A DNA stretch of 59,446 bases, taken from assembly GCA_022446985.1 (NCBI GenBank), contig JAKVBD010000028.1:1-59446 (forward strand). Reading direction: 5' to 3'. The number at the start of each line of letters is the position of its first letter. Position 1 is the first letter of the stretch. The notes below the pieces were generated by a model. The model worked only from the letters and a program-made list of their open reading frames with translations, made no database searches and had not been told where the DNA came from. The translations under genes and the position numbers were made by a program. The stretch comes from Lentisphaerales bacterium. GTDB taxonomy: Bacteria > Verrucomicrobiota > Lentisphaeria > Lentisphaerales > Lentisphaeraceae. Below, piece after piece: positions 12,943-45,349 of this stretch.

Positions 12943-13170
12943 ATGAGGAAGGTTCAAATGATGGTTAAGCTATTCTCGATTTTCATTCTTGCAGGAGTCT
13001 TTCTGTTAACAGGCTGTAAGGAAGCTAAAGAAGGTGCAGATGCTGTCTCTGGCAAAGTTACAGGGCAGCAGGATATGGAAATTATGAAGAAGACTGAAAA
13101 GAACTTGCAAATGTTGCAGGATAAAACAAATAAGCAGCAACAAGATGCTTTAAAACAGTTGGAGAAGTAA
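12943..13170 (+). CDS. Small lipoprotein (lipobox LLTGC), Gln/Lys-rich
   Basis: Signal peptide and a Cys lipobox read from the translation. 75 aa. Confidence 0.45.
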   Translation: MRKVQMMVKLFSIFILAGVFLLTGCKEAKEGADAVSGKVTGQQDMEIMKKTEKNLQMLQDKTNKQQQDALKQLEK

Positions 13171-13266
13171 GCTTTTATTGTCTTACAGTTTGTTCTTGTG
13201 CTAAACACTGTTACACTATTCTGATATAAGTTAAGTATGATTCGATTGAATTAAACTGAGTTTGAG

Positions 13267-13953: not shown

Positions 13954-14006
13954 CCGATCTTTTATATCTCATTCTCAGCTTAGGTAATAATACTGGAAGT
14001 TGAGAC

Positions 14007-19432: not shown

Positions 19433-19436
19433 GAAT

Positions 19437-20621
19437 GTGAAAATGGATATACGTGAAAAGTACAGTAAATACATTTTAGGGACTTACGCCCCGGCAGTTT
19501 TTTTTGAGAAAGGCGAAGGCTCTTATCTATGGGATGATAATGGCAAAAAATACCTCGACTTTGCTTCAGGTATAAGTGTTTGTAATATTGGTCACTCTCA
19601 TCCTAAAGTTGCAAAAGCTATTGCGGATCAAGCGCAAAAACTATTGCATGTTTCCAATTTATATATGACTGAAAATGCGCCTCTTCTGGCAGAAAAGATT
19701 TCTAAAGCCGGTTTCAATGGCAAAGTTTTCTTTTGTAACAGTGGTGCAGAAGCCAATGAAGGTCTGATTAAGTTTGCCCGCAAATGGGGTAGCGATAAAA
19801 GCCGCCATGAAATTATTTGCATGAACGACTCTTTTCATGGGCGTACTTTAGCAGCGCTTGCTGCCACTGGACGTGCAAAATACCGCGAAGGCTTTGGACC
19901 GGATCTTGAGGGCTTTGTTCACGTTGATTACGGTGATCTTGAGGCTGTGAGAAATGCTATCTCAGATAAAACGGCAGCAGTTATGCTTGAGCCGGTTCTT
20001 GGCGAAGGTGGTGTTCGTCCAGCCGCTGTTGAATTTATTCAGGGTGTTCGTCAGCTTTGTGATGAGGCTGGAATTTTAATGATGTGTGATGAAGTTCAAA
20101 CAGGTATTGGCCGTACTGGGAAAATGTTTGCACATCAGCATTTTGGTATTGAACCGGATGCAATGAGTTTGGCAAAAGCTCTTGGTAATGGCATGCCAAT
20201 TGGTGCTTTAATGCTTCAGTGTAAGCACGAAGGAATTCTTGTTCCGGGAACTCATGCTACGACATTTGGCGGAACACCTCTAGCTTGTGCGGCAGGTTTA
20301 GCCGTTTTTGAGGCTTATGATGAAGAGAATGTTCTTGAGAACTGCCAGAAGCAAGGTCAAAAAGCTTTTGAATTCTTAAAAGCTCTTGGTGAGAAATATG
20401 ACTTCGTTAGTGAAGTGCGTGGCCTGGGCTTGATGATTGGTATAGATGTTGAAATACCAACAGGTGATGTTCTCAAGAAAGCTTTTGATAAAGGCTTGAT
20501 ATTATTAACTGCCGGTGAGAAAACGATTCGTTTACTGCCGACTTTAAATCTTTCAGATACAGAGCTTCAGGAAGGCCTGGAAATAATTGAAAAAACTTTT
20601 GAGGAGTTGAACAATGTCTAA
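19437..20621 (+). CDS. argD: Acetylornithine aminotransferase (class III PLP)
   Basis: Class III aminotransferase motifs (DEVQTGIGRTG, ...SLAKALGNG) in arg-operon context. Confidence 0.8.
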   Translation: MKMDIREKYSKYILGTYAPAVFFEKGEGSYLWDDNGKKYLDFASGISVCNIGHSHPKVAKAIADQAQKLLHVSNLYMTENAPLLAEKISKAGFNGKVFFCNSGAEANEGLIKFARKWGSDKSRHEIICMNDSFHGRTLAALAATGRAKYREGFGPDLEGFVHVDYGDLEAVRNAISDKTAAVMLEPVLGEGGVRPAAVEFIQGVRQLCDEAGILMMCDEVQTGIGRTGKMFAHQHFGIEPDAMSLAKALGNGMPIGALMLQCKHEGILVPGTHATTFGGTPLACAAGLAVFEAYDEENVLENCQKQGQKAFEFLKALGEKYDFVSEVRGLGLMIGIDVEIPTGDVLKKAFDKGLILLTAGEKTIRLLPTLNLSDTELQEGLEIIEKTFEELNNV

Positions 20622-31747: not shown

Positions 31748-33238
31748 ATGGCTAAAGTAAAATTTAAGACCCAGACTAATTTAGATGTAGAAGGTTCCAG
31801 CAGGAGTTCAGGTAGACGATCAGGTAGAACGACTGGTAGGAATTCAGGACGTGTTAGCAGCCTTAATCAAGAAGCTGCTTCTGCTAAAAAGAAAAGCGGT
31901 GGAGTACTGGCCTTTTTGGTATTTATGATTTTGGCAGGTGGTGGTGGCGCTGCGGCATTTTTCTACCTGGATAAGCAAAAAGAAGTAACTTCATACATAA
32001 TTACCAAGCAAGAAGCCGACCTCGTTCGCCAAGTCAATAAGCGCTTGGAGCTTCCAGCACAATCTCTCAGTCAATTGAATTTCATTCTTGGTGATTTAGA
32101 AAATTTTGAAAGAAAATTCACAATTGCTCAGATTGCGACTGTGAATGGTAAAGAAGTTCGGTTTGTTAGCCCGCATATTGAAGAGATGAGCAAAGTTAAA
32201 CTGGATGTAATTGAAGGTATTGCTTCTGCAAAAAGAGATAAATATCGCGTTGTTGACTACGATAATATTCAACAAACGCTTGAGAAAGCGCGTATAGAGA
32301 AAGAACGTCTAGCTCTTGAAGAGCGCCAAAAGCAAGAAGAAGCAGAACGTATTGCAGCTCAGAAAAGAGCCAAAGAAGAAGCTGCCGCGGCAATTGTAGC
32401 TAAAGGTGAAGCTTTAGATGAAGGTAAGATGGATGTTCGTTGGGAAGTTCTTGACTCTCTCATGTTTGACCGCTCAATGTTCCGTCCACTTGAAGGAAAG
32501 TTTTCATTTAACTTTGTGTCTTCTATTGAGCTGGTAGACCCTTGGGTTAAATTCCCTCTAGATGCGCAAAAAGAATGGGGCAATGGCATATCTAAGATTT
32601 ATGCTTCAGCTCGAAATACTTTTGGTATCATTTCAAATTCAGGTACTGACTATCGCGGATTTAAAATGTTCTATGAGAAGCGCGAAGGAACAATCATGAA
32701 CATTTCAAAACAGCAATTCAGAATTCGTGTTGTTGATAATGTCGAAGGTATGGAAATTCCTCGATCTTTAGAGCGCGATATCATCGATATGCCGATGCAC
32801 GAGTTTTATAATCTACTGAAGCAGGCAGTTCTTCCTGAGAACCTTGCTAAAAGTAAAAATGCTTCTAAAAACTGGGAAGCACTCAAGAAACTTCACCCTG
32901 GAATTTCAGAAGATCAGGTTCTTGAATTTGGTTATGCCTGTATCATGTATATGCTCAAAGAATTTCCTTCTTCTAGAAAGTCTATCGAAAGGGTGCAAGA
33001 GATTTCAACAGACCTTTTACTTGAAGAGATAAATTTTGTATCACCTAAACACAACCGTCGTGAAATGGATATGGGTATTCAAACGGCTCAAAGCCTTTAT
33101 GATGAAGGTAAACGTCAGGATACACTGTTAATACTTGAGAGAATGCGCGTTCGCTTTGAAGGGACTAAAGAATGGAGCGAGTACAAAGATCAGTTCGTGG
33201 CTCTTAAAGAAAGCGCCAATCAGATTAAGAAGCGCTAA
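31748..33238 (+). CDS. Hypothetical protein with an Arg/Ser/Gly-rich N-terminal tail, one TM helix and a coiled-coil region
   Basis: N-terminus SSRSSGRRSGRTTGRNSGRVSS, then a hydrophobic helix, then a KERLALEERQKQEEAERIAAQKRAKEE coiled coil. 496 aa. Confidence 0.5.
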   Translation: MAKVKFKTQTNLDVEGSSRSSGRRSGRTTGRNSGRVSSLNQEAASAKKKSGGVLAFLVFMILAGGGGAAAFFYLDKQKEVTSYIITKQEADLVRQVNKRLELPAQSLSQLNFILGDLENFERKFTIAQIATVNGKEVRFVSPHIEEMSKVKLDVIEGIASAKRDKYRVVDYDNIQQTLEKARIEKERLALEERQKQEEAERIAAQKRAKEEAAAAIVAKGEALDEGKMDVRWEVLDSLMFDRSMFRPLEGKFSFNFVSSIELVDPWVKFPLDAQKEWGNGISKIYASARNTFGIISNSGTDYRGFKMFYEKREGTIMNISKQQFRIRVVDNVEGMEIPRSLERDIIDMPMHEFYNLLKQAVLPENLAKSKNASKNWEALKKLHPGISEDQVLEFGYACIMYMLKEFPSSRKSIERVQEISTDLLLEEINFVSPKHNRREMDMGIQTAQSLYDEGKRQDTLLILERMRVRFEGTKEWSEYKDQFVALKESANQIKKR

Positions 33239-33261
33239 TTACTTAGTAAATATTTTTGAAA

Positions 33262-33290
33262 TAGCCGGCTCTAAAGCCGGCTATTTTATT
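33262..33290. terminator. Bidirectional hairpin terminator between convergent genes
   Basis: Perfect stem TAGCCGGCT/AGCCGGCTA with CTAA loop, followed by TTTTATT. Confidence 0.7.
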
Positions 33291-33302: not shown

Positions 33303-33815
33303 TTATTTCTTGCCATTACGGCTTTTCTCAACTTCTTCAGAAGAGTCACCGCCGACGTGCTCAAGTAAGACATCGAACTTCATTTCCATGTCTTTGACCA
33401 GGGCCTTTAACCCACCGATATGATCACTGTTTGAATTTCCGACTTTGAAGATGGATTCCATCCAGGATCTCATGAGCTCTAACTGTTCGTTGAGAATCTT
33501 CGAGAAGAAGTCAGGTACAGTATTGATGATCTTGATCTGATCTGGAATTATATCTAGATCCCCAGCCGGTTTAGGAGCTGCTGCTACCGGAGCCATTTTT
33601 GTTTGTAGAGACTCAGCAAGAGCCTTCAACTGTTCCAGAGATTCGGAGTTGAGAGATAAAACCGCAGGTTCATTACTTTTTTGTGGTTGCATATTCGCCG
33701 CCAGTTCAGGTAATGCCTTCATTCCACCAGAGATGGAATCCCGAATCTGCTCTAAGCCTTCAGTGAACTGTCCCATTTGAACCAGGATTTGGGCCATTGG
33801 GTCAGACTCATCCAT
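33303..33815 (-). CDS. Small acidic hypothetical protein, last gene of the flotillin/AAA+ operon; true start may be an internal Met
   Basis: 170-aa ORF overlapping the 3' end of the giant gene by 64 nt. Helical, Glu/Leu-rich, no recognisable domain. Confidence 0.45.
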   Translation of the reverse strand: MDESDPMAQILVQMGQFTEGLEQIRDSISGGMKALPELAANMQPQKSNEPAVLSLNSESLEQLKALAESLQTKMAPVAAAPKPAGDLDIIPDQIKIINTVPDFFSKILNEQLELMRSWMESIFKVGNSNSDHIGGLKALVKDMEMKFDVLLEHVGGDSSEEVEKSRNGKK

Positions 33816-36800
33816 ACCTTGAAAAGTTGATTCTTTTCGAAAGTCTTGCGAATAGAAGCTAAACGAGCATTGTCTTCTTCAGTGCTATTGCCAAATAGCT
33901 CTTTAAAACGCAGCATATTAAATTCAGCTCCGGAAGTCAGAGTCTGAGATTCATTTTCGTAGTGAGACATGATGAGAGTTTCAAGCTCATTGTCATTCAT
34001 CACTGGTAGAATCTTTTCAACAATCTTATTCATGTTGCGATAAGACCCCTGCATCTTAAATGGCGGTTCGGTTCTATATTCATCTGCCATAGCAGCAGAA
34101 CGAATGTACTCAGCATTGACTTTGCTTATGACATCGCGGACAACCAGCATCTTTTTCATGACGCCATTTATCTCATTCATGTCTTCCACAGAATAATTGC
34201 CTTCAAACTCGAGGCCTTCACGACTGTCAGTCTCTGCCATTTTGATAAATGTATAAATGTCCTTCTGACTTTTGGCATTCAGCTTATTTAATACTGAATT
34301 TGAGGTCAGTGAGTTTTCTATATAACTCATATTAAAGACATTTGCAGTGTCTCCTATAATGTCACCAAGATTGTAGGTGTCAGCTCGGTTTGCTAACATA
34401 TCCGGAATCTGGAACTTGTCGCCACTTTCGTTATAAGGGTTACCAGCCATACAAACAACGACTTTACGGCCACGCAGATCGTAAGTCTTTGGTTGGCCTT
34501 TGTAGACACCTTCGATTTTTCTCTGGCCATCACAAAGAGAAATAAATTTCTGTAAAAGCTCTGGGTTTGAGTGCTGGATATCGTCCAGATATATCATGAC
34601 GTTATCGCCCATTTCAAAAGCCAGGTTCAGCTTTTTCATTTCTTCGCGAGCTGCAGCATTCGGCGCTTCAGAAGGGTCTAATGAAGTTACATGGTGGCCA
34701 ATAGCCGGAGCATTGATCTTCATGAAGATCAGTCCAAGACGATTGGAGATGTACTCCATGAGTGTTGTTTTACCGTATCCTGGAGGAGATATTAACAGTA
34801 ACATACCCATAAGGTCGGTACGCTTATTTTCTCCGGCAACACCGATCTGCTTTGCCAGGTTGTCACCTATGAGTTGGAGGTAGACTTCGTCGATTAATTT
34901 ATTTCGAACAAAGCTGCTGAGAATTCGTGGCTGGAACTCATTTAGTCGGAGCTCTTTACGATATTCTTCAGTAAGCTCTTTTTTGAGGTCCTGATATCTT
35001 AGATAGAGTGGAACGTCTCTTTCATCGAATTTACTTAAGCGCTCGATAAACTCATTGAAGTTCAGGCTGTAGTTTGCTTTCTCAATCAATTTATGAGAAC
35101 CGGTCATTTTCTCAATTGTAGCATTGACCGAAACTTCAATGATGTTGCGCTCATGAAGAGAGTCGGTGATAACTAAAGCTGCGGCTTCATCGATGTATTC
35201 ATCTAGTGCCGGTTTCTCAATAGTGTCGAGATAAGCAGCTAACCAATTGCGTACCAGTTCAAAACAACCTGTAATGTCAGAATCCAGCTTGTGAATAGCT
35301 TCTTTAAATTTTTGAGCATGAGCTTTACCGCGCAGGAAGTTGTCGAAACCATGACAGATCTCTGCGGCCTCTTTACTGATGACAAAATCGCGTCCACGAC
35401 AAAGTTCCTCGAAAAGATATTCTGCGGCATTCAATGCCGGGAAATCTGCAAATAGAGGTTCTTGCTCTGTGAATTTCTCGATGCCTTGTTCAATTTGTTT
35501 GATGAATGTCTCTTCCTTCTTTTGAGAAGGGAAGACTTCACGCATGTCACCAAAACTGCCAAGTTTAATCTTAAGATTCTCTTTCACTGCTTCATCAGCA
35601 AACTTAACCCAGTAAATAGAGGCTAAAGCACGAGCCTGACTGCTGAAACGCAGAAGACCAATTGACGCGCTGATACTAATGAGCTGCCTGAGAATTTTAG
35701 CTGCATCAAAGTCATGGATACCTTTGACGTAATTCTCTTTATAACGCGGCCCCATGAAAACTTGTACGGCTTTGTGAAGTTCTTCTTCAGAGAGTGCATC
35801 CAGTTCAGTAAGATCCTTTTCCAACTCTCCATTGCGAGCAGCACGGTACATTTTATAAGCGAGGTACTCGCCGCGATACACTTGTGCATTTTCGGAAGCC
35901 GTTTCCATTGACCACAAGTCTTTAGTGGATAAAAACTCAGGATGTTCAATTCTTTCAAAGAACTTAGTGCCAGTTAAGTGGAAGAATTGATCGTCATCTT
36001 TTTGAATGATTGTCAGGTCAAGATTCTGCTGGTTGAAAGAGAACTTATGCTTACCAAGTTTAATCGTGTTGTCATCACCATAAAGATCATTTTTGTCTTT
36101 GAGCTGGCGAACAGTATCTTCACGAATTGTTTTTATGCGGCCTTCGATATCATCGGCCTTAACAGAGTCGCCAAGTTCTTTCAAGTTTGCAACGATGTCG
36201 CGAACTTTGTCGATCATTAAATCAGCAGCGAAGTAAGAGTTGATCTCATTGACTTCTTTGAAAGTTTGAACGCGGTTTTTGACACCACTTAATATACGCT
36301 CAGCAGCGCTCATTAAGGAGGTCGTTCTCTTATTCAGAGCTTCCTGAAGAGAAACTTTCTTAGATTCAAAAGCATTGTAGGCTTCATCGCGCTTTTCAGT
36401 GATTTGAACTATAAAATCATCAAATTCACTGAAGCGTCCTTCAAGCTCTTCTAACTGGATCATGACCTTAGTGAGGTATTCATCGCAGTTTGCTGGAGTT
36501 TCACATACATCGAGGTAATTAATGACACTCTGATTCAAGAGCTTCATCTGAGCATTGAACTCAGCAACGCCCTCGACACTCATCAGGTCTTTGATCTTGT
36601 TTTTTAGACCGGCTTTAATCTGATTCAGTTTAGAGAAAATAGTAGAAATGCTATCGATGATGCGAGTCGTCTGAGTTGCATCCGCGATCTTTAGATTACT
36701 GACTATTTCAATGAGCATTTCCAGCTCGGAAGAAGTCTCGACTATGCCTTTTTCAATTTTCTCACCTTCAATGGCAATAGTCAATTCATCTATTGCTTTG

Positions 36801-38617
36801 GCCAGGTCATCGACAAGTTTCTTGAAAGGATCAAGAGCTTCATCGAGAAGTAGGAATTCAACACACTTTTGAGACAGCTTGTCGACTTGCTCTTTGACTT
36901 GAGCCTCGAGCTCTTCCAAAAATGGAATGTTGATGTAACGGACTTCTTTAAGGGAAATGATTTCACCTCTTAAGCCGCGCAATTCAGCCAGGTTTTTAAC
37001 AAAACTGTTTATCTCATCGAATTTAGCATAGGTTACGCCTTTAAGAGCTTTTTCAGCTTTCTCTTTAATCTCTTTCGATTGAGAGTCGGCAGTTTTCTTG
37101 AGAGTTCTGACTTTTTCATATTCATCAATAGCCGAACTACTGGTTTGTTTGATTTGAACCAGAGGTTCCGTAAGATTACCGGCTTCTTCTTTATTTAACC
37201 AGAAGTAAGTGTCGATGACATCCGTAGCTTTTTTGACGATGTCTATGTAAAGTCCGGCATATGAGTCTTCTTTGTTGAGAAGAGTTAAGACTTCATAACA
37301 CTCTGCCATGCAACGGACGATATCTATGTTGCCGATTTTGTATAAGAAATGGTCGGCATGAGCGTTATCAACGTTGACGTAATCTGAATGACAATAAGGT
37401 GTTTTCCAAAGCTGAATAGCGTGATGTTTCTGCGGTTCTCCATCTGATTTAAAGAACACCATATCGCCGTTATTGAACAGTGAGTAACCGTGACAAACGG
37501 TGGGTGTTTCAACAGATTGGTTAATCAGATTATATGAAAGCAGTACGTAAATTGTGTCCTGGCGATTAAAAAATGTATATAAGAAATCTTCGCCATTTGG
37601 AGAGATTGTTCGACGCTCAAAAACCATGTCATTGATGTCAGTGTCGAAACGCTTGTACTCACCAGTTTGCAGGTAGTAACCTTTAGAGAAAATAATGCCG
37701 TGGTCATCTGGAAGAAGTATACAACAATCTTCAATGTCATCTATGCGTGTGGCCGTTTGCATTTTCTCGTTGAAAACGATGTAGCGGTACTGTTGTTCCT
37801 GATAAGGACGAATCTTAAGTAGAATCAGGCTGCCAAGAGCGGCATAGTGAATTTCTGCATCGTCAAGAGTCTGGTCTTTGTGCTCGACTTCTTCTTCATA
37901 GATACCGCTGCCATCGGCTGTGTTGTCTTCAACTTTTATAGTTAAATCACCACCAATAGTTTCTACAAAAAATCTTTCATCTATAGATATGTGGCCGTGC
38001 TTGCCATCGCGGTGCATGTCGCGAGTAGTGCGTGTCCATTCAAATTCGTGTTGCGCCGGGTAAGTGTATTCGTGAACACTACGGTCATCAATATATGTTA
38101 ATGTGTCGTCATTAATTTGCCATTTAAAGACTTTGAGATCTGTAATGCTTTCGCCAATCTGGAAAACAAAGTACAGGTTGTGGCCTTTAATAGTGAACTT
38201 AACAAAACGGGCTTTTTTATAGTATTTGAAAAAGTCATTAAAGTTGGCGATGAAGTTGTTATCTTCGATAAGTGAAAGATCATCGCGAACAAAAGTCCCG
38301 TCTTGATAATGATAGACAGCAAATATATCGGCTAGACTGATCTCTGATTTGAGTCCCATGACAACATTGTAGCCAAAGAGGAACTTGTCGCCGATAACAG
38401 CGATGTCCTGCGCTATGCAGTTATTGTCTGTGCTGATTCGCTCATTGCTGATGAGAGTTGTTTCAACTGAACCAAATATGTCTTTACGAAAGCCATTCAG
38501 CTTTTCGAGTCGTGTGCGCAGCTCGTCGCCTTGATTCTCAAGACGTTTACGAATGATCTCGTAAGTACCTCCTTCGAGTTCTACGCCAGCTGCATCTTTA
38601 TTGTCGTCTTCTGACAT
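33752..38617 (-). CDS. Giant (1621 aa) protein: about 450-aa beta-rich N-terminal domain, about 800-aa alpha-helical/coiled-coil middle, and a C-terminal MoxR/dynein-related (AAA_5-type) AAA+ ATPase module
   Basis: GGAGG RBS. Single P-loop LLLISPPGYGKTTLMEY at about residue 1270. Walker B VMIYLDDIQH. Sensor-1 VVVCMAGNPY with MLANRAD, typical of MoxR/midasin/McrB-type AAA+. No other nucleotide-binding motif seen in the 1250 upstream residues. Confidence 0.7.
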   Translation of the reverse strand: MSEDDNKDAAGVELEGGTYEIIRKRLENQGDELRTRLEKLNGFRKDIFGSVETTLISNERISTDNNCIAQDIAVIGDKFLFGYNVVMGLKSEISLADIFAVYHYQDGTFVRDDLSLIEDNNFIANFNDFFKYYKKARFVKFTIKGHNLYFVFQIGESITDLKVFKWQINDDTLTYIDDRSVHEYTYPAQHEFEWTRTTRDMHRDGKHGHISIDERFFVETIGGDLTIKVEDNTADGSGIYEEEVEHKDQTLDDAEIHYAALGSLILLKIRPYQEQQYRYIVFNEKMQTATRIDDIEDCCILLPDDHGIIFSKGYYLQTGEYKRFDTDINDMVFERRTISPNGEDFLYTFFNRQDTIYVLLSYNLINQSVETPTVCHGYSLFNNGDMVFFKSDGEPQKHHAIQLWKTPYCHSDYVNVDNAHADHFLYKIGNIDIVRCMAECYEVLTLLNKEDSYAGLYIDIVKKATDVIDTYFWLNKEEAGNLTEPLVQIKQTSSSAIDEYEKVRTLKKTADSQSKEIKEKAEKALKGVTYAKFDEINSFVKNLAELRGLRGEIISLKEVRYINIPFLEELEAQVKEQVDKLSQKCVEFLLLDEALDPFKKLVDDLAKAIDELTIAIEGEKIEKGIVETSSELEMLIEIVSNLKIADATQTTRIIDSISTIFSKLNQIKAGLKNKIKDLMSVEGVAEFNAQMKLLNQSVINYLDVCETPANCDEYLTKVMIQLEELEGRFSEFDDFIVQITEKRDEAYNAFESKKVSLQEALNKRTTSLMSAAERILSGVKNRVQTFKEVNEINSYFAADLMIDKVRDIVANLKELGDSVKADDIEGRIKTIREDTVRQLKDKNDLYGDDNTIKLGKHKFSFNQQNLDLTIIQKDDDQFFHLTGTKFFERIEHPEFLSTKDLWSMETASENAQVYRGEYLAYKMYRAARNGELEKDLTELDALSEEELHKAVQVFMGPRYKENYVKGIHDFDAAKILRQLISISASIGLLRFSSQARALASIYWVKFADEAVKENLKIKLGSFGDMREVFPSQKKEETFIKQIEQGIEKFTEQEPLFADFPALNAAEYLFEELCRGRDFVISKEAAEICHGFDNFLRGKAHAQKFKEAIHKLDSDITGCFELVRNWLAAYLDTIEKPALDEYIDEAAALVITDSLHERNIIEVSVNATIEKMTGSHKLIEKANYSLNFNEFIERLSKFDERDVPLYLRYQDLKKELTEEYRKELRLNEFQPRILSSFVRNKLIDEVYLQLIGDNLAKQIGVAGENKRTDLMGMLLLISPPGYGKTTLMEYISNRLGLIFMKINAPAIGHHVTSLDPSEAPNAAAREEMKKLNLAFEMGDNVMIYLDDIQHSNPELLQKFISLCDGQRKIEGVYKGQPKTYDLRGRKVVVCMAGNPYNESGDKFQIPDMLANRADTYNLGDIIGDTANVFNMSYIENSLTSNSVLNKLNAKSQKDIYTFIKMAETDSREGLEFEGNYSVEDMNEINGVMKKMLVVRDVISKVNAEYIRSAAMADEYRTEPPFKMQGSYRNMNKIVEKILPVMNDNELETLIMSHYENESQTLTSGAEFNMLRFKELFGNSTEEDNARLASIRKTFEKNQLFKVWMSLTQWPKSWFKWDSSLKA

Positions 38618-38652
38618 GGTGTTGCACCTCCTAAAATTAAGTCACTTGTGAT

Positions 38653-38708
38653 CCAGGGGCAGTCGCCCCTGGCGTTACATGAACAGGATTTCTCCCTCAA
38701 AATCCTGT
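38653..38708 (-). promoter_or_regulatory. Two strong hairpins in the flotillin to giant-gene intergenic region (intra-operon attenuator or processing site)
   Basis: CCAGGGGC-AGTC-GCCCCTGG (8-bp GC-rich stem) and ACAGGATT-N10-AATCCTGT (8-bp stem), lying between the stop at 38715 and the start at 38617. Confidence 0.4.
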
Positions 38709-38714
38709 CGTGAC

Positions 38715-40913
38715 TTATTTGCCGGTTAGGAGTTCATCGACAGTTTTATTACCCAGTCCAAGGCTCTTCACTGTACCCATGAGTGACTCAACGATGTTTT
38801 TGTCTTCACCTTGAACATTGCTCGCCAGTTTATTCAGAAGTACAGCAGTAGTCAGGTTCTTAAGATCTTCAGAGCTGACACCGAACTTGTCGATGAAACC
38901 TTGAAGTTTCTCTTTGAAGTTACCGCTGCCATCGAAGAAAGTGTTTTTGACATCTGTAAGGACATCAGAGCTTTCAACCATGCCGTCAATTGTCTTGCCA
39001 CGAGTGATAGAGTTAAGCATCTTATCGAAGAACATAGACTCACCACCGACGATATCGATGTTGGCAGACTTAAGACCTTCTTTAAGAACTTCAGCTTGTG
39101 CCGTAGCAATTTCAGCTTGAATTTGAATACCGGCAAGTTCAACTTCTTTGTCTTTGTTAAGGCGCAGCTTGAACTCTTCGTGTTCTTTACCGACACCATC
39201 AAGTTTCTTCATAGCTTCAGCTTTGTCTTCGATACCCTGTGCCTCAGCGTGGAACTTCTTAGCCATAACGTCAGCTTCAGCCGTACCTTCTTTCTGAACA
39301 GCAGCAGCCATGGCAGTTTTTACGTTGGCTTCAGCAAGGCCGGTAGCAGCTTCTTCTGCAGATACACCTTCAGCAAGTACTTTCTTGGCACTTGAATCTT
39401 TCTGTGCAGCTACTTCGCGAGCTTCGGCATCTGTTACTGTTTTCTCAGCAAGTAGAACAGCCGCTTGCTTCTCAGCTTCAGCTTTCTTAGTCTCTACCGC
39501 AAGGTATTCGTCAGCTTTTAGCTCAGCTGCTTGTTTCTCAGCTTCCGCTTTACGAGTTTCAACGATGAGGTACTCTTCAGCCTTAAGTTCGGCTGCTTTC
39601 TTTTCAGCTTCTGCTTTACCAGCTTCATTCAGCATAAGTTCCTGAGCTTTGATTTCAGCAGCATCTTTGGATGCTTCTGCAGCGCGAACCTGACGGATTA
39701 AAAGATCTTGAGCATCTCTTTCAGCATTTGTCATAGCAACCTGCTTCTCACGATCGGCAGTTGCGAACTCTTTAGTATCTTTGATTTTCTCTTCTTCTTC
39801 GACAACGTTTCTTTCAACGTGAACACGTTCGCGGATAACTTCCTGAATATTCTTACGCTCTACTTCGACAGCTTTTTCTTTCTCGATGTCTGCTAGAGTT
39901 ACAACTCTTTCACGTTCTGTGATCTCTAACTGACGGTCTTTTTCAACACGCTCAGTTTCGATAGCATCTGTACGCTGTTTGTTTTTCTCTGCAACGATGA
40001 TCTGACGCTGCATATTTTCTTCAGCGATGGAAACCTGCTCCTGAGTAGAAATGCGAGCATTTTCTTCTTTAAGTTTTTCTTCCTGACGAATGACTTCAGC
40101 TTCAGCATGAGTTCTTGCTTCGATAGAGGCAATTTCTTTCTTTTGATTCTCTTCAGCTTCAGCCAGTTCTTTTTCCATGTCGAGAATTTTTTCACGAGCA
40201 TCAACATTTTGACGAGTGATTTGCTTCTCTTCCTCTCTCTCTTGTTCGTTAATGCGAACTTTCTTTTCACGAGTGATCAGAGCGATTTTCTCTAGACCCT
40301 GGACGTCAAGAATGTTGTCAGGGTTCAGAAGTTCTTTTGGTGTTTGCTCAAGGTCGTCAATAGCAGCATCTTCAAGACTGTAACCATTTAGATCTGTACC
40401 GATAACATCGATGATGTCATCTTTAAATTTTTGACGTTTAGTATAGAGGTCTTCGAAATCGAACTGTTTACCAACAGTTTTTAAGGCCTCTGAGAATTTC
40501 GCATCAAAAAGTTCAATCAGTGAATCCTGGTCGGACGCTCTGGCAACACCAATCATCTGTGCAACGCTTAGTACATCTTCAGCAGTTTTGTTAACACGAA
40601 CGAAGAATGCTACTTTGATGTCGGCACGCATATTGTCCTGACAAATAAGTCCGTTTTGTGCTTTTCGGTCAATCTCTACTCTTTTAACTGAGATGTCCAT
40701 GATTTCCATTCTGTGGATAATTGGAATAACGACTAAACCTTTATCAAATGCAACTTTTGCGCCGCCATATCCTGTTCTAATCAAGGCTCTACCTTGTGGT
40801 ACCTTTCTATAACATTTAACAGCTGCAATTAAGCCGGCAAAAAGAAATGCGCCTAAACCAACTAGTATGATGAGTGCTTCTGTACTTACGAATGCAATTG
40901 TGAATGAATTCAT
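38715..40913 (-). CDS. Flotillin-like SPFH/Band-7 protein (YqiK/FloT-like) with a long repetitive coiled-coil C-terminus
   Basis: N-terminal TM helix plus SPFH domain (RTGYGGAKVAFDKGLVVIPIIHRMEIMDISVKRVEI...). Then about 350 aa of E/A/K-rich coiled coil with 21-aa repeats KAEAEKQAAELKA(D/E)EYL(A/I)VET(K/R). AAGGAGGG RBS. Confidence 0.8.
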   Translation of the reverse strand: MNSFTIAFVSTEALIILVGLGAFLFAGLIAAVKCYRKVPQGRALIRTGYGGAKVAFDKGLVVIPIIHRMEIMDISVKRVEIDRKAQNGLICQDNMRADIKVAFFVRVNKTAEDVLSVAQMIGVARASDQDSLIELFDAKFSEALKTVGKQFDFEDLYTKRQKFKDDIIDVIGTDLNGYSLEDAAIDDLEQTPKELLNPDNILDVQGLEKIALITREKKVRINEQEREEEKQITRQNVDAREKILDMEKELAEAEENQKKEIASIEARTHAEAEVIRQEEKLKEENARISTQEQVSIAEENMQRQIIVAEKNKQRTDAIETERVEKDRQLEITERERVVTLADIEKEKAVEVERKNIQEVIRERVHVERNVVEEEEKIKDTKEFATADREKQVAMTNAERDAQDLLIRQVRAAEASKDAAEIKAQELMLNEAGKAEAEKKAAELKAEEYLIVETRKAEAEKQAAELKADEYLAVETKKAEAEKQAAVLLAEKTVTDAEAREVAAQKDSSAKKVLAEGVSAEEAATGLAEANVKTAMAAAVQKEGTAEADVMAKKFHAEAQGIEDKAEAMKKLDGVGKEHEEFKLRLNKDKEVELAGIQIQAEIATAQAEVLKEGLKSANIDIVGGESMFFDKMLNSITRGKTIDGMVESSDVLTDVKNTFFDGSGNFKEKLQGFIDKFGVSSEDLKNLTTAVLLNKLASNVQGEDKNIVESLMGTVKSLGLGNKTVDELLTGK
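39460..39650. repeat. About three imperfect 63-bp tandem repeats inside the flotillin coding region (encoding 21-aa coiled-coil repeats)
   Basis: DNA units such as GCTGCTTGTTTCTCAGCTTCCGCTTTACGAGTTTCAACGATGAGGTACTCTTCAGCCTTAAGTTCG recur at about 70-75% identity. Confidence 0.6.
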
Positions 40914-40926
40914 TCAACCCTCCTTT

Positions 40927-41571
40927 TTAATTAAAAATTTCGTCTTCTACTTCAGAAATGATATATCTGTTAGCGCTGTGATCTTTTGATAGGACAACAG
41001 CTTTTTTGCCCTTTGAGATTGTTTGACCAGCTTCACATTTGACCATCAGGTTAACGATAGTTGGCCCTTCTTTAATTGAAGCTTGTCCACTGTTTTCAGT
41101 AACATCAGTAACAGTTGTACAGACATTACCGATTGAGTGAGTTTGACTTTCTTTGTCTTCGATGAGTTTGGAAAAAAAGCACTTTAAGGGATTCGTAAGT
41201 AATTTACTTGCTGGCAGACTTATAAAAAAGACTACAGCAAAAATGATCCAACCGACAATTGCATAATTACCCGGGTTGAATATCATGTTGGCAATTAGGC
41301 CTAATCCCCAGTTGATGGCAATTATTGAAAAGATAATAAATGTTACAGGAACTTTTCCGACATTTAAAAAGAGATAAAACGTCTGAAAAAAGCTACCGCC
41401 ATCAAGGCTAATGTCGAGGTCTGTATCAACATCTACGTCAGTATCAAAATCTAAGTCAGTACCAACACCAGATAAAAGTGAGAGAATTGTAATGATTGAT
41501 GATATTATCATCAAGACAGTCCACGGGACTAAATATATTTCTTTCGAAAGTTCAAAAATTTCATTAATCAT
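40927..41571 (-). CDS. NfeD/YqiJ-like membrane protein (flotillin partner): TM helices, acidic DLDFDTDVDVDTDLD loop, C-terminal soluble beta domain
   Basis: 214 aa, immediately upstream of and co-directional with the flotillin gene, as in yqiJ-yqiK and nfeD-SPFH pairs. Topology read from hydrophobicity. Confidence 0.6.
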   Translation of the reverse strand: MINEIFELSKEIYLVPWTVLMIISSIITILSLLSGVGTDLDFDTDVDVDTDLDISLDGGSFFQTFYLFLNVGKVPVTFIIFSIIAINWGLGLIANMIFNPGNYAIVGWIIFAVVFFISLPASKLLTNPLKCFFSKLIEDKESQTHSIGNVCTTVTDVTENSGQASIKEGPTIVNLMVKCEAGQTISKGKKAVVLSKDHSANRYIISEVEDEIFN

Positions 41572-41902
41572 AAAAATTTACCTTTGTTCATACATCGAAT
41601 TACAGCAGTTCGCCTTACGTGTATTGCCCCTTTGTTCGTAAGTTTCTAGTAATTAATGAATAATAAAAATATCATTCTTTTTTGTAAGTGTTTTTGTATA
41701 AAGTGGAGTTGGTGAATAGCACCAAGGTCTTATTACATTAACAGGATAAAACGTACTTTTAAACCCTTTGATTTCAATGGGGAAAGCCCGGAAAAAGGCA
41801 TCTGGTAAGGAAAAAAATGGCTTGTGGTGTAAAAAACCAAGTTATGACATTAAAACGGTAAATTTCCCTTCCGATAATCTCTTTAGTGGAAGGGAAGTAT
41901 AA

Positions 41903-44900
41903 TTAGGAAAGTTGAGCGTCGCGAACTGCTTTATTTTCAGCTTTTCTTTTAGCAAAGCCCTGGCCAAAGACACGCCAGTTTTCCGGATGACGAATGCCTT
42001 CCAATACTTCAAATAACACTGGTAAAATAAGCAGTGTCATGAGAGTACTTACAGTAAGGCCTGCAATAAAGGCTGTCGCGAATGGGCTCCATGCAATACT
42101 AAAATCCGGAATACCAATAGCCATTGGCAATAGGCCTGCAATGGTTGTTACAGATGTCATAAGTATAGGACGCATTCTTTGATGACCAGCTAAAAGCAAA
42201 GCTTGTTTTAAAGGAAGGCCATCTGCTAAACGCTTATTCATAAAGTTGATCAGGACAATAGCATCGTTAATAACTAAGCCAGTCAAACCGACTACAGCCA
42301 TGAAGCCATTCATTGTAAAGTACGACCTTTCGGGACGAATAGACCCTTCCGGCAACATTTCGGCGCCTATACCAAGTATTGCCATAGTAAGAATAACACC
42401 GGTGAAGCTGAAGAATACATTGGACATAATCAGGACAGGTTGTGTGTAGCTCTGAAATTGACTGGCGAGGATGCCATAAATTACGACCAGTGCCAGTAAG
42501 AAGGCAACTGCCATACTGCGGTAACTCTTCATGGTACTTTCAGATTCACCGCCAAAGGAAACAACAACACCTGAATAGTTCTGTTTGTTTTCTTCCCACC
42601 ATTTGCCGACGACATTTGAAATGTTTAAGGCACCGATTTTGGCATCTTCTGTCAGGTTCCCCGTGACAGTCACAATTCTTTGGAAGTCCCAGCGAATTAA
42701 TGATGCAGGTACACTTTTGATACTCATCTCGCCAACATCATTATAGAGCAGTCTCTTACCATCAGCTTGGTTAATTAGTGGAACATTTAAAATGTCAGAG
42801 GGATCTTGGATTTGTTTTCGAGATAATCTGACTTTCAGAGGAATTTCATCATCCAATCTGCGATAATCAGCGATGTAGGCTCCATCGAGACTATCTGCGA
42901 TGAAGCTTTGGACATCGATTTCACGCAGGTCATGATTGGCCAGCTTTCGGCGATTTGTATCAAAAGAGATGATCGTATTTCGAAGATTCCTGTCGTGTTT
43001 TAAATCAATGATACCTTCTAGCGCTTTACCGGTTTGAGCCTCTGAATTTATGTAGACCATCAAGTCGTCAACAACTTTCATTATGTCGTTGTCATCTAAT
43101 CCAGAGACGCGAACATTAAGAGGAAGACCGGTTGGCGGACCATCCTTAGCTGCAGCAATATCCAGCGACACACCATTTTTTTCATATAAATTTTCAAGTT
43201 CTTCTCTGACTTGTTGGATGAACTTTTTTGGATTATCAAAGTCACGATTTTCCTTCAAAGGCAGCTGTGCCTGAATGTAACCATATTGACTGCCCATAAC
43301 AGGTTTATAATCTGCACTGACAGCCATTCCTGCCTGTGAACTGGTATTGAGAATTTGACTTGTTCCTTTTGCTGCCAGATACTGACTCATTTCTCTAACA
43401 AGTTTATCTGTTTCCTTAAGTGGAGTACCAGCTGGCATATTGACAGTTATTTGAATAAGTGAGGTGTTATCCGGGAAAAAAACCATTTTGAGAACGGGCT
43501 TCATACCTATAAAAGGCATAGCCAGGATGAATGCAGCCAGAACAAATAGAATAATGGTGGTACCTACAGAGCTTATAGGATGGGCCAGAGTCCAGCTTAA
43601 GGCAGCATGATAAAGCCTTGAAAATTTTCCCATGAAGCCTGCTTGGTTGAGGTAGTCATCGAGCTTATCACCATTGCGTTCATGCTGAGACTTTTGTTTA
43701 CCAAGAAGCTTCTCTAAATCAATGACGTGCAAAGGTAGTAAGAACAAACACTCAATAAGGCTGATACAAAGCGCAACGGTTACTGCGATAGGGATGAGAG
43801 CAAAGAAATCGCCTACTGTTCCGGTCATCAAGAGAAGAGGTAGAAATGCCGCCATTGTAGTTAACGATGCGCTGACAACCGGCCAGAAAACTTCACTGGT
43901 TCCATCAATAACTGCCTGATATATGTTTTTGCCGGACTCGCGGTGACGTTTTATATTTTCGATAACAACGATAGCATCATCAACAACTATTCCACTTACT
44001 AACACAAAGCCAAGTAGGGTTAATTCGTTGATTGACTGGCCAGCTAAATAAAAGACCAGTAGACTGCCGAGAAAACTAAATACAATGCCTGAAACTGTAA
44101 GGACTGCTTCGCGACATGTTAACATTATAAATGTCGACAGGATGAGAAGAGCTATAGCTTGTGTAAATGTTGAATTGGAAAGAGGAATGATAATAGCCGC
44201 AGTTACTGCAATAATTAAGCCGATGAACGTTGTTTTGCGACTTGCATTTGCAAGGAAAACAAACAGCAAGGTCATGACAAAGACTGCTGACAGCAGCAAG
44301 CTGCTTGATAAGACTCCTAGTCCGTCTTTTATATTATTAGTGCTGTCCATTGTGTAAACAGCAGTAACTCCTGCATCATCATTTGTTCTTAAGAAGTTAT
44401 CAGTCTCTGAAATAACCAGATTCTTAATTTTTAAGGCGTTTCCGGTGCTTAGTTTGAGAATTTTGCAGCCGACCATATCCAGACCGTTAACGGTATTTAT
44501 GATGCCGCCTGGAAGGTTTTCGACGCCAGAATCACTGTGATCTATAAGGTCCTCGAGGTAAATAATGTTGCCGTTACCATCCTTTCGTATAGGTACGTCA
44601 AGAATATCTTGTTTACTGCGGAAACGACTGTCTATGCGGATCAGTCGCTCGCCATTTGAAGTATCCAGAGTCCCTGATGGAGGAGCTTGACCGGCTGCGC
44701 GCATAGCATGGGAGACGTCAGTAATTGTCAGACGGTTCTTTTCAAGTTTCTCCACGTCGAGAGAAACAGCATACTGTTCAGCAGAGTCACCCAGTAAAAG
44801 AACTTTTTTGATTTGATCTATTTGTTCTAGTCTGAGCCTAAGGTCCTTTGCCAGTAACATTAAAGTTCTTTTAGGAACTGGTTTGTTGATATCTTTGGCC

Positions 44901-45349
44901 ACGAGATTGACTTGCATTACAGGTAGCCATTCATCTACATCTGCTTCAGAGAAAAATGGCGACAATGGATCACCATTTTGAACAGGAAGTCTGTTTTGTA
45001 TGCCCATCACCCTAAATCGCAATTCATTATAGAGTGCCTGATAATCTGTGTCATCGACAAACTTGACATTGATCATTGAGAGGTCAGGCCTTGAAGTGGA
45101 TTTTACATAATCCAGGTGCTTCATGCCTCGCAGACTGTCCTCTATTTCGGTAGTAACCAGTCTCTCTACTTCATCTGATGTTGCTCCTGGAAAACTGGTC
45201 CTGATTTGTACTTCACCAAAAGCAAAGTTGGGGAATTGTTCCACGGGCAGGTTTGGGACAGCTACAAAGGCACTGAAAATAATCAGTCCAACAAAGATGA
45301 CGTTCAGCAGGACTCCCTGGCCAAGACTGAATTTGATAAGTGGTTTCAT
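41903..45349 (-). CDS. RND efflux transporter permease (AcrB/CzcA superfamily)
   Basis: 1148 aa with 12 TM helices and two large periplasmic loops. Follows the MFP gene with a 1-nt gap. Confidence 0.85.
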   Translation of the reverse strand: MKPLIKFSLGQGVLLNVIFVGLIIFSAFVAVPNLPVEQFPNFAFGEVQIRTSFPGATSDEVERLVTTEIEDSLRGMKHLDYVKSTSRPDLSMINVKFVDDTDYQALYNELRFRVMGIQNRLPVQNGDPLSPFFSEADVDEWLPVMQVNLVAKDINKPVPKRTLMLLAKDLRLRLEQIDQIKKVLLLGDSAEQYAVSLDVEKLEKNRLTITDVSHAMRAAGQAPPSGTLDTSNGERLIRIDSRFRSKQDILDVPIRKDGNGNIIYLEDLIDHSDSGVENLPGGIINTVNGLDMVGCKILKLSTGNALKIKNLVISETDNFLRTNDDAGVTAVYTMDSTNNIKDGLGVLSSSLLLSAVFVMTLLFVFLANASRKTTFIGLIIAVTAAIIIPLSNSTFTQAIALLILSTFIMLTCREAVLTVSGIVFSFLGSLLVFYLAGQSINELTLLGFVLVSGIVVDDAIVVIENIKRHRESGKNIYQAVIDGTSEVFWPVVSASLTTMAAFLPLLLMTGTVGDFFALIPIAVTVALCISLIECLFLLPLHVIDLEKLLGKQKSQHERNGDKLDDYLNQAGFMGKFSRLYHAALSWTLAHPISSVGTTIILFVLAAFILAMPFIGMKPVLKMVFFPDNTSLIQITVNMPAGTPLKETDKLVREMSQYLAAKGTSQILNTSSQAGMAVSADYKPVMGSQYGYIQAQLPLKENRDFDNPKKFIQQVREELENLYEKNGVSLDIAAAKDGPPTGLPLNVRVSGLDDNDIMKVVDDLMVYINSEAQTGKALEGIIDLKHDRNLRNTIISFDTNRRKLANHDLREIDVQSFIADSLDGAYIADYRRLDDEIPLKVRLSRKQIQDPSDILNVPLINQADGKRLLYNDVGEMSIKSVPASLIRWDFQRIVTVTGNLTEDAKIGALNISNVVGKWWEENKQNYSGVVVSFGGESESTMKSYRSMAVAFLLALVVIYGILASQFQSYTQPVLIMSNVFFSFTGVILTMAILGIGAEMLPEGSIRPERSYFTMNGFMAVVGLTGLVINDAIVLINFMNKRLADGLPLKQALLLAGHQRMRPILMTSVTTIAGLLPMAIGIPDFSIAWSPFATAFIAGLTVSTLMTLLILPVLFEVLEGIRHPENWRVFGQGFAKRKAENKAVRDAQLS

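Follow-up and report, generated by a model that had tools for sequence, protein, structure and literature searches.

A cluster of minus-strand genes in the window (the whole 59,446-nucleotide stretch of a Lentisphaerales MAG analysed here) places a flotillin and a small membrane protein beside a giant AAA+ protein, and we asked whether these form a functional unit and what the ATPase might do there. The original prediction was of a closely packed four-gene operon with good ribosome-binding sites in a PVC-type host. The host is indeed a PVC bacterium, the predicted open reading frames are all present on the minus strand, and the operon is real; however, it has only three genes, all co-oriented and tightly spaced, the supposed fourth being a frameshift fragment. 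The genes, in operon order, and the elements around them are as follows:

40927..41571, minus strand: YqiJ-family membrane protein, 214 aa (Pfam YqiJ_N; PGAP name 'YqiJ family protein')
38715..40913, minus strand: long flotillin/SPFH protein, 732 aa (Pfam Band_7; PGAP name 'flotillin family protein')
33303..38617, minus strand: giant ATPase
41572..41902, minus strand: intergenic region of 331 nt, from an RND efflux gene to the yqiJ-like gene
38618..38714, minus strand: 97-nt spacer between the flotillin and giant ATPase genes, holding the AGGAGG ribosome-binding site of the latter
33257..33288, no strand assigned: GC-rich 14-bp hairpin between the operon end and a convergent gene

The gaps are 13 nt (yqiJ-like to flotillin) and 97 nt (flotillin to giant ATPase), and an AGGAGG Shine-Dalgarno sequence lies 5' of both the flotillin and the giant ATPase genes. 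The operon probably has its own promoter within 41572..41902, where a sigma-70-like match (41688-41660) agrees with nine of 12 consensus positions, a level of match that is no commoner here than in shuffled sequence. Two 8-bp hairpins (caggattt…aaatcctg and ccaggggc…gcccctgg) can be read directly in the 97-nt spacer, and the hairpin at 33257..33288 is probably a bidirectional terminator. There is no GC anomaly at the locus, the neighbours are housekeeping genes, and the region is syntenic with a related locus (L081) and with the P0002 contig; the chromosomal context is stable.

The proposed fourth component, a small acidic helical protein (33303-33815), was rejected as a separate gene because homologues read through the junction and a T-run in the window lacks one base. 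It is instead the C-terminal tail of the giant ATPase:

33822..33825, minus strand: frameshift site, where the T-run has one base fewer than that of the nearest relative (DNA alignment)
33303..33824, minus strand: C-terminal tail of the giant ATPase, about 173 aa, net acidic, 72% identical to residues 1599-1776 of P0128

At the T-run the window reads AATCAACT-TTTCAAGGTATGGAT and L081 reads AATCAATTGTTTAAAGGCATGGAT; as assembled, the ATPase frame ends at a stop at 33752 after 22 out-of-frame residues. The nearest relative, P0128 (1777 aa, same 90% cluster, syntenic locus L081), reads straight through, and homologues are continuous across the junction ('...KNQLF(K/Q)G(V/M)DESDPMAQ...'), being contiguous in P0002, P0005 and P0111. 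Repair of the frameshift gives a protein of 1771 aa. The tail carries a conserved amphipathic helix (IPDQIKIINTVPDFF…LMRSWMESI) and is a lineage-variable extension, with 33 of 60 homologues stopping 23-56 aa past this point. The 1-nt frameshift is either an assembly error or an event that removes a dispensable tail.

The assignment of the first gene to a YqiJ-like membrane protein holds, with a match to Pfam PF21001 YqiJ_N over residues 19-121 (25.2 bits, cut-off 23) and three hydrophobic segments (residues 11-40, 65-98 and 97-127). The protein also has a loop of acidic D-x-D repeats and a soluble C-terminal domain, for which there was neither a Pfam NfeD match (E <= 0.01) nor a PDB sequence match. 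The second gene encodes the 732-aa flotillin with a repeat-containing coiled coil that had been anticipated: Pfam PF01145 Band_7 matches residues 37-218 (53.8 bits, cut-off 23.6, E = 3.1e-14), preceded by a single N-terminal hydrophobic segment (residues 2-35), a membrane anchor, and followed by a Glu/Ala/Lys-rich coiled-coil region of roughly 400 aa. Each of these genes contains a short tandem repeat:

41419..41467, minus strand: 18-nt tandem repeat, 2.7 copies, in the yqiJ-like gene, encoding the acidic 'DxDxDx' loop (…DLDFDTDVDVDTDLDISLD…)
39458..39627, minus strand: 66-nt (22-aa) tandem repeat, 2.6 copies, in the flotillin coiled coil (AEAEKKAAELKAEEYLIVETRK / AEAEKQAAELKADEYLAVETKK…)

The C-terminal roughly 130 aa of the flotillin are kept within its own subfamily, and the C-terminal 'Flot' domain PF15975 gave no match at E <= 0.01. 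A flotillin profile gives a weak hit (E = 0.0017) to the QmcA cage protein 8z5g, in its coiled-coil wall. In 59 of 62 related loci the gene preceding the giant ATPase gene is about 50% identical to this flotillin along its whole length. The flotillin represents a distinct and highly conserved subfamily, one member of which (L012) has no Pfam Band_7 match at all.

The giant ATPase had been thought to contain an AAA module as its only recognisable part, which proved incorrect. Pfam DUF3686 (PF12458) matches residues 32-472 (E = 4.4e-186) and DUF7902 (PF25472) matches residues 593-676 (E = 8.6e-26); DUF3686, DUF7902 and AAA in one polypeptide is the family layout (members of about 1600-1900 aa), and the protein is 55-83% identical to DUF3686 family members over 98-99% of its length. 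Together with an AlphaFold2 model, these matches suggest the following organisation:

33821..38617, minus strand: conserved core, residues 1-1599, 55-57% identity across phyla over 98% of length
37403..38458, minus strand: predicted beta-propeller, residues 54-405, about seven blades, within DUF3686 (AlphaFold2 and Pfam)
36083..37348, minus strand: predicted long-helix/coiled-coil region, residues 424-845, including DUF7902 (model and Pfam)
35165..36062, minus strand: predicted small beta domain (852-889) and all-helical domain (893-1151), before the ATPase (AlphaFold2)
33818..34825, minus strand: AAA+ module, about residues 1265-1600 (motifs, beta-hairpin before sensor 1)

In the model a helix at residues 18-48 precedes the propeller, which has about 27 strands (mean pLDDT 82) and whose Foldseek matches (IFT-A, the clathrin terminal domain and prolyl oligopeptidase) are all propellers; the long-helix region has predicted helices of 48-58 residues, and the small beta and helical domains (residues 852-1151) have no family match. 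The ATPase motifs quoted in the original prediction are present, with Walker A PPGYGKTT at residues 1278-1285 (34763-34786, minus strand), Walker B IYLDDIQH at 1342-1349 (34571-34594, minus strand) and sensor-1 MAGNPY at 1390-1395 (34433-34450, minus strand), together with a candidate arginine finger ANRAD (34379-34393, minus strand), and they are invariant across family members. Walker B is DD rather than DE in all of them, such that ATP turnover may be slow or switch-like rather than motor-like. The predicted AAA_5/MoxR-type classification stands in part: Pfam AAA_5 falls below its curated threshold (19.0 against 22 bits) while generic Pfam AAA passes (29.8 against 21.2 bits, E = 9.5e-07), and structure comparison places the module closest to the solved MoxR ATPases CbbQ and NorQ, so that by predicted fold it is MoxR/midasin/dynein-like. 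A hydrophobicity check found no transmembrane segment in the giant, cytosolic ATPase, and Pfam found no Peptidase_M41 or other protease domain.

To ask whether the giant ATPase is characteristically a flotillin neighbour, we used 62 loci of homologues that span at least seven phyla and include 3.2 kb or more of sequence upstream. In 59 of them a flotillin gene lies directly upstream on the same strand, so that homologues are not mostly found apart from flotillin, and a YqiJ-like gene precedes the flotillin in 56 of the 59; in L010, L020 and L048 there is no flotillin within 7.6-10 kb upstream of the ATPase. The order is held in three deep-branching members (28-31% identity), and also in Pseudomonas pQBR103 and in Deinococcus. 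Because this adjacency persists so widely, the deep branches included, the proposal that the flotillin/YqiJ pair and the giant ATPase form a functional unit is supported at the level of sequence. The distance matrices of flotillin and ATPase correlate with r = 0.75, as expected of any two genes sharing a species tree. Carriers include Bacteroidota, Verrucomicrobiota, Planctomycetota, Desulfobacterota, Clostridia, Omnitrophota, Kiritimatiellota, Acidobacteriota, Pseudomonadota, Actinomycetota and Deinococcota; matches occur in only 13 of 72,556 plasmid records, the module is present on a few megaplasmids, and phages gave no match. The module is a widespread, vertically stable set of three genes.

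Other genes recur beside it. Genes for a CesT-like chaperone (CesT_Tir_1, 4e-54) and a PspA/IM30 protein (PspA_IM30, 4e-41) lie upstream in 21 loci, about one third of those related, mostly in Bacteroidota and also on a Pseudomonas megaplasmid, and an HTH+Peptidase_S24 gene (a LexA/CI-type repressor) is present in 19 loci, divergently encoded in Bacteroidota. On pQBR103 the module is joined to a yjfI-pspA-...-glutathionylspermidine-synthase operon, in L083 a TelA gene follows the ATPase, and in L082 a PspA gene lies 6 kb away. Searches of the window ORFs (59 kb) with profiles from the related loci found no PspA, CesT or HTH-S24 gene (E <= 1).

The arrangement is not new, contrary to the original prediction. 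Ravi et al. (mSystems 2024, PMC11237479; preprint 2020) catalogue precisely this operon, both with the CesT-PspA pair and lacking it, as CesT/Tir - PspA - YqiJ/YuaF - Band-7/flotillin - beta-propeller+coiled-coil+AAA+ ATPase, and report that the abbreviated form without PspA is widely distributed; theirs is a comparative genomic study only, and they also read the operon as linked to membrane stress. The operon in the window has the same three proteins, order and domain architectures, and Bacteroidota loci match their Dokdonia example gene for gene. Unlike their full form, the window has neither the CesT-PspA dyad nor the HTH-protease regulator; since CesT-PspA is missing it corresponds to the abbreviated operon. 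We found no experimental study of the operon's function in the literature, nor is the giant ATPase a member of a well-characterised family; it has Pfam and PGAP names, and no experimentally established function was found in the literature.

The module shares features with several better known systems. As in E. coli yqiJ-yqiK and B. subtilis yuaF-floT, the gene just before the flotillin is of the YqiJ/YuaF type with three transmembrane segments, and the flotillin has an N-terminal anchor, SPFH domain and coiled coil. The yqiK and floT flotillins are about 510-550 aa, whereas the flotillin here is longer at 732 aa and tied to a giant ATPase, which neither of those operons is known to contain. 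HflK/C-FtsH and prohibitin/m-AAA likewise pair an SPFH scaffold with an AAA+ protein at the membrane, a pairing made here by operon, but the present ATPase has neither a transmembrane segment nor a protease domain, and its AAA+ module belongs to the MoxR/dynein type, not to the classical one of FtsH. MoxR ATPases usually act with a VWA partner. Compared with that family (CbbQ, NorQ, RavA; midasin, dynein), the module is only about 12-14% identical, is sub-threshold for AAA_5, has a DD Walker B and follows some 1250 residues of propeller, coiled coil and helical domains in the same polypeptide; the conserved neighbour families (YqiJ, flotillin, PspA, CesT and HTH-S24 only) include no VWA/MIDAS partner. 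Vps4/ESCRT-III and PspF/PspA are cases of AAA+ proteins acting on ESCRT-III-superfamily polymers, and the AAA+ gene here is similarly linked to PspA/IM30 in 21 related loci and on pQBR103.

With moderate confidence, we take the module to be a membrane-maintenance/envelope-stress or remodelling machine in which the ATPase acts on the flotillin scaffold. A role in membrane stress is suggested by the CesT, PspA and HTH-S24 neighbours, pQBR103, the TelA gene of L083, the PspA gene of L082 and the reading of Ravi et al. The anchored flotillin and its YqiJ-like partner would form a dome or microdomain of SPFH type at the cytoplasmic side of the membrane, as the dome-shaped flotillin 44-mer (PMC13000311) and the HflK/C and QmcA cages suggest by analogy. 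Either the propeller, the coiled coil or the C-terminal tail would let the soluble ATPase bind this scaffold, a physical contact that only gene linkage suggests, and the ATPase may form a MoxR-type ring that spends ATP on remodelling the scaffold itself or the proteins it retains. In the longer operons, remodelled proteins would include PspA/ESCRT-III-like polymers; in B. subtilis an SPFH protein is reported to connect PspA with the membrane (PMC8581546). Counted against this mechanism are the DD Walker B, the lack of a VWA partner among the conserved neighbours, the lack of PspA, CesT and HTH-S24 in the window, and the three loci without an upstream flotillin (L010, L020, L048).

A more specific and tentative proposal, which we consider less likely than not, is that the DUF3686 ATPase is a dedicated ATP-driven motor for assembly or disassembly of bacterial flotillin cages and, via them, of PspA/ESCRT-III-like polymers. 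If so, it would recycle an SPFH scaffold in the manner of Vps4 or NSF. No energy-dependent regulator of flotillin microdomains is known to have been reported, and the ATPase could then be the first.

Other explanations account for parts of these data. The ATPase could help a different membrane complex to mature, as a MoxR-style chaperone (cofactor insertion or client assembly), with flotillin and YqiJ only a client-concentrating platform and neither flotillin nor PspA being remodelled. CbbQ and NorQ, its nearest solved structures, are maturation/activation chaperones, and SPFH scaffolds do hold client enzymes, as in the HflK/C complex with FtsH (PMC13220708); but no client or VWA/MIDAS adaptor gene recurs among the conserved neighbours and AAA_5 is sub-threshold, and we consider this explanation rather unlikely. 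An anti-phage or abortive infection system, in which propeller and coiled coil sense infection and act via the membrane scaffold, is less likely still. It would fit the patchy distribution (identity between phyla about 50%), a pattern suggestive of horizontal transfer, the CI/LexA-type repressor adjoining the module in Bacteroidota, the variable small genes (one DMP19-like) inserted between flotillin and ATPase in some loci, and the presence on a few megaplasmids. However, the only PADLOC-DB v2 match is a noise-level one to mad8 in the P-loop region (13.6 bits, E = 0.009), no nuclease, protease, NADase or pore-forming effector domain was found with Pfam, the very high sequence conservation is atypical of fast-evolving defence genes, and the module is absent from phages and sits in a stable context syntenic with housekeeping genes.

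We give very little credence to the remaining two explanations. The less credible is the PVC-specific endomembrane or coat-like system, with a protocoatomer-like protein of propeller and helical repeats. IFT-A, clathrin heavy chain and Nup chains are among the top Foldseek matches to residues 1-1200, and the host is a Lentisphaerales bacterium, but the TM-scores on the query are 0.08-0.13, the matches involve only the propeller, and the helical part is predicted to be long coiled-coil helices rather than an alpha-solenoid. The proposed link to PVC endomembranes is contradicted by the occurrence of the same module in many non-PVC phyla, most carriers not being PVC. Scarcely better is the suggestion, from the Pfam description 'ATPase involved in DNA repair' and the PGAP name 'DNA repair ATPase', that this is a repair enzyme with an incidental flotillin neighbour. 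There are weak sub-threshold matches to RuvB, but these are confined to the Walker A region and score 17-22 bits where the cut-offs are 27 to 299, Pfam and profile searches found no DNA-binding or nuclease domain, and we found no paper using the family identifiers. The flotillin adjacency in 59 of 62 loci and deep branches, in a context of membrane protein genes, also argues against it. The PGAP name is probably a misnomer, and probably derives from the resemblance of the coiled coil to SMC/RecN-type proteins.

The operon and its immediate surroundings in the window comprise the following features.

41903-45349, minus strand: AcrB-type RND efflux pump gene, directly upstream of the operon
40927-41571, minus strand: YqiJ-like ORF, 214 aa (Pfam YqiJ_N, 25.2 bits against a cut-off of 23)
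41419-41467: 18-nt tandem repeat in the YqiJ-like gene, coding for an acidic D-x-D-x loop (DLDFDTDVDVDTDLDISLD) between TM1 and TM2
38715-40913, minus strand: flotillin ORF, 732 aa (Pfam Band_7/SPFH, 53.8 bits)
38618-38714: flotillin-ATPase spacer of 97 nt with two 8-bp hairpins (caggattt/aaatcctg; ccaggggc/gcccctgg)
33752-38617, minus strand: giant ATPase ORF as assembled, 1621 aa (Pfam DUF3686, DUF7902 and AAA)
33303-33815, minus strand: tail ORF, 170 aa (ORF call)
33257-33288: 14-bp hairpin between the end of the operon and the convergent gene
31748-33238, plus strand: convergent ORF, 496 aa, without a Pfam match

The YqiJ-like and flotillin genes are 13 nt apart and the flotillin and giant genes 97 nt apart, with an AGGAGG ribosome-binding site ahead of each of the latter two; the hairpins in the longer spacer have no T-tract downstream and might tune the scaffold:ATPase ratio. 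The RND pump gene probably belongs to a separate transcription unit, as it lies 331 nt from the YqiJ-like gene, and no GC anomaly was found in the window. In the giant protein Pfam recognizes DUF3686, described as 'ATPase involved in DNA repair' (residues 32-472, E = 4.4e-186), DUF7902 (residues 593-676, E = 8.6e-26) and AAA (residues 1273-1393, 29.8 bits), with AAA_5 below threshold (19.0 bits against a cut-off of 22). In NCBIfam none of the four ORFs finds a family, RuvB being matched at noise level only, and the 170-aa ORF matches nothing in Pfam, NCBIfam or PADLOC. PDB sequence searches with the giant protein, flotillin and YqiJ-like protein gave no match, and the flotillin profile found only QmcA, weakly. 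Hydrophobic segments of transmembrane character number three in the YqiJ-like protein, one in the flotillin and none in the giant protein. The acidic loop of the YqiJ-like protein is possibly a cation-binding loop; a similar one is visible in its homologue at locus L002.

The original prediction counted four genes; its domain calls are broadly right and three of the genes are real, but the fourth is the frameshifted tail of the giant ATPase. The nearest relative of the giant protein, P0128 (1777 aa, in the same 90% cluster), is encoded at a locus (L081) syntenic with the window, with RND pump, YqiJ, flotillin and giant genes. A convergent gene of similar size to that in the window is found in the same position at L081 (495 aa) and on the contig of P0002 (444 aa), these being the two closest relatives, and is followed in both by the same HGLS and aldehyde dehydrogenase genes. 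Upstream of the L081 pump gene lie genes for a TetR regulator and a 354-aa protein. Close homologues extend about 150 aa beyond 1621 aa, and the segment '...KNQLF(K/N)GVDESDPMAQ...', uninterrupted in these, is divided over two ORFs in the window: its first part closes the 1621-aa ORF and the remainder opens the 170-aa ORF, which is 72% identical to the P0128 tail. DNA alignment with L081 shows the window to be one base shorter in a T-run at 33822-33825 (minus strand), and repair of the frame yields a protein of 1771 aa; the deposited annotation has the 1621-aa protein (MCH2206368.1) and no protein record for the tail ORF. The missing base reflects either an error of assembly or a genuine mutation; if genuine, the truncated product keeps the entire conserved core. 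The tail is an extension that varies by lineage, since 33 of 60 homologues, mostly from Bacteroidota, end naturally 23-56 residues past this point. The frame could also be brought back by a -1 slip on U-UUC, but we judge programmed frameshifting unlikely, as the frame of the nearest relative is intact and has no slippery run; transcriptional slippage is disfavored, four T's being too few.

An AlphaFold2 model of residues 1-1200 of the giant protein (61 aligned sequences, mean pLDDT 82) predicts the following organization.

Residues 18-48: helix
Residues 54-405: beta-propeller of roughly seven blades and about 27 strands
Between residues 424 and 845: long helices of 48-58 residues each
Residues 852-889: small beta unit
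Residues 893-1151: all-helical domain

Foldseek searches against the PDB gave propeller matches only (IFT-A, clathrin terminal domain, prolyl oligopeptidase and WD40 proteins), and because the TM-scores are low we read these as 'beta-propeller' and nothing further. Alignment of 15 sequences drawn from several phyla shows no variation in Walker A (PPGYGKTT), Walker B (LDDIQH), the Asn of sensor 1, NRAD as a candidate arginine finger, or a pair of C-terminal arginines. The giant ATPase is a soluble protein of MoxR-like fold with its catalytic motifs intact. The second acidic residue of Walker B (window 34571-34594) is Asp, not Glu, in all 15 aligned members, whereas most AAA+ ATPases have the catalytic Glu at this position, and the DD motif suggests that ATP turnover may be slow or switch-like. 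The protein is among the best conserved large proteins met in this analysis: members from different phyla share about 55% identity over 1600 residues. Some homologues have additional Pfam repeat-domain matches, either ankyrin (P0025, P0033 and P0114) or TPR (P0038 and P0105).

Scanning one genome per GTDB species identified at least 567 confirmed relatives of the giant ATPase, and the best 80 loci, which were analyzed, come from Planctomycetota, Bacteroidota, Verrucomicrobiota, Desulfobacterota, Clostridia, Omnitrophota and Kiritimatiellota. At 62 of these 80 loci the ATPase gene is preceded by at least 3.2 kb of sequence, and in 59 of the 62 a same-strand flotillin gene lies directly upstream, its product about 50% identical to that of the window over its full length, and in 56 of the 59 a YqiJ-like gene sits just ahead of the flotillin (median gap 18 nt). 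The predicted coupling of flotillin and giant ATPase is therefore real and strong, and this survey does not support incidental adjacency. The order is also kept in three of the most distant full-length members (29-31% identity), where genes of about 214-245 aa and about 650-680 aa precede the giant gene; the middle gene of one of these (L082) aligns end to end with the window's flotillin at 28% identity. A propeller-domain search of 1.84 billion representative proteins found 746 representatives, and the top 150 listed, obvious fragments excluded, are almost all 1600-1900 aa long. Pairwise distances of flotillin and ATPase correlate (r = 0.75; Mantel p <= 0.001), a result consistent with co-inheritance that a common species history would by itself also give. 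Their lengths correlate weakly (r = 0.29), and we dropped the inference of matching coiled coils for this reason. At L010, L020 and L048 the giant ATPase is present, and the 7.6-10 kb upstream of it contains no flotillin gene.

Only three further families recur among clustered neighboring ORFs of the best 80 of the at least 567 loci, almost all in Bacteroidota: a PspA/IM30 protein (21 loci), a CesT_Tir_1/YbjN-like chaperone (17 loci) and a divergent HTH_3+Peptidase_S24 repressor (19 loci; for example L008 3974-4771). Profiles of all three find no match within the 59-kb window. In the Bacteroidota layout the genes run CesT, PspA, YqiJ, flotillin and ATPase, at times with variable small genes ahead of the ATPase, and the repressor gene precedes them on the other strand; the divergent placement of this self-cleaving LexA/CI-type repressor hints at induction through repressor cleavage. 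This layout, recovered independently here, is that of the Dokdonia donghaensis row in the supplement of Ravi et al. ('The phage shock protein (PSP) envelope stress response: discovery of novel partners and evolutionary history', mSystems 2024, PMC11237479; bioRxiv 2020), who describe a CesT/Tir-PspA operon with three further proteins; the row gives cHTH+Protease (opposite strand), CesT_Tir, YqiJ-YuaF, Band-7+coiled-coil+flotillin and Betapropeller+Coiled-coil+AAA-ATPase. The arrangement, originally thought to be undescribed, has therefore already been catalogued, and the window locus is an ordinary member of a computationally catalogued, experimentally uncharacterized operon type. Our literature searches found no paper naming DUF3686, PF12458, IPR020958 or DUF7902, none joining 'DNA repair ATPase' with flotillin, and no experimental work on the giant ATPase; the flotillin-associated rhodopsins (bioRxiv 10.1101/2025.04.29.651185) are unrelated to the operon.

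The triad is also carried by a Deinococcus replicon and by the Pseudomonas fluorescens SBW25 megaplasmid pQBR103 (L085, NC_009444.1 84437-97641), where it follows a full yjfI (CesT-like)/PspA/rhomboid/DUF2491/DUF350/DUF1190/glutathionylspermidine-synthase-like operon and offers a tractable system for experiments. Only 13 of 72,556 plasmid records, most of them megaplasmids or of chromosome size, carry the triad, and none of 50,697 phage records does. Among the distant members, L083 has a TelA (toxic anion resistance) gene (13001-14221) directly after the ATPase, and L082 a PspA_IM30 gene (18780-19532) 6 kb downstream.

The operon structure, the deep co-conservation of the three genes and their recurrent joining to PspA-type membrane-stress genes incline us, on balance, towards a role in membrane maintenance or remodeling. 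The membrane-anchored flotillin and YqiJ-like protein would form a membrane-attached SPFH dome or microdomain, on which the ATPase could dock through its propeller, coiled coil or tail; assembled as a ring, it would spend ATP on remodeling the scaffold or the cargo held there, which may include PspA polymers where PspA is encoded alongside. Precedents are a flotillin 44-mer dome (PMC13000311), HflK/C with FtsH (PMC13220708), the QmcA 26-chain entry 8z5g, and, experimentally, a Bacillus subtilis SPFH protein linking PspA to the membrane (PMC8581546).

Action of the ATPase as a MoxR-style maturation chaperone for some client is a credible but rather unlikely alternative. We are more doubtful that this is an anti-phage module, since there is no PADLOC match and no effector domain, conservation is very high, and synteny is stable. 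Genuine DNA repair seems very improbable, and the name 'DNA repair ATPase' given in the annotation probably misleads. A coat-like system specific to PVC bacteria is the hardest to credit, as the helical part of the giant protein is coiled coil and the taxonomic spread contradicts it; the loci span many phyla, so the PVC link originally proposed does not hold.

The module bears on the assembly and turnover of flotillin scaffolds and their tie to membrane-repair proteins such as PspA, and through it flotillin gains a genetically obligate ATPase partner. Because it also occurs in experimentally amenable organisms (isolates of Flavobacterium and Hymenobacter, Proteus mirabilis, Vibrio campbellii and P. 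fluorescens with pQBR103), the drive behind flotillin dynamics is directly testable, and the whole module is a good, tractable handle on what drives these scaffolds, while the window instance itself will not surprise a specialist.

Many Bacteroidota and Verrucomicrobiota loci have flotillin-ATPase gaps of 350-2400 nt containing unrelated small genes, as in these two examples.

L012 8618-9704: small-gene insert between flotillin and ATPase
L070 7868-9768: small-gene insert between flotillin and ATPase

The inserts are heterogeneous (DMP19-like, DUF3997 and DUF3592-like) and form no recurrent cluster, which rules out a conserved small gene here; the gap seems to tolerate or attract insertions. 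In Aquimarina, short ORFs at L042 1771-2235 (minus strand) and L080 3587-4054 (minus strand) cluster with the giant ATPase family; these are on the strand opposite the main operon, several kb upstream of it, and may be either fragments or a second related gene.
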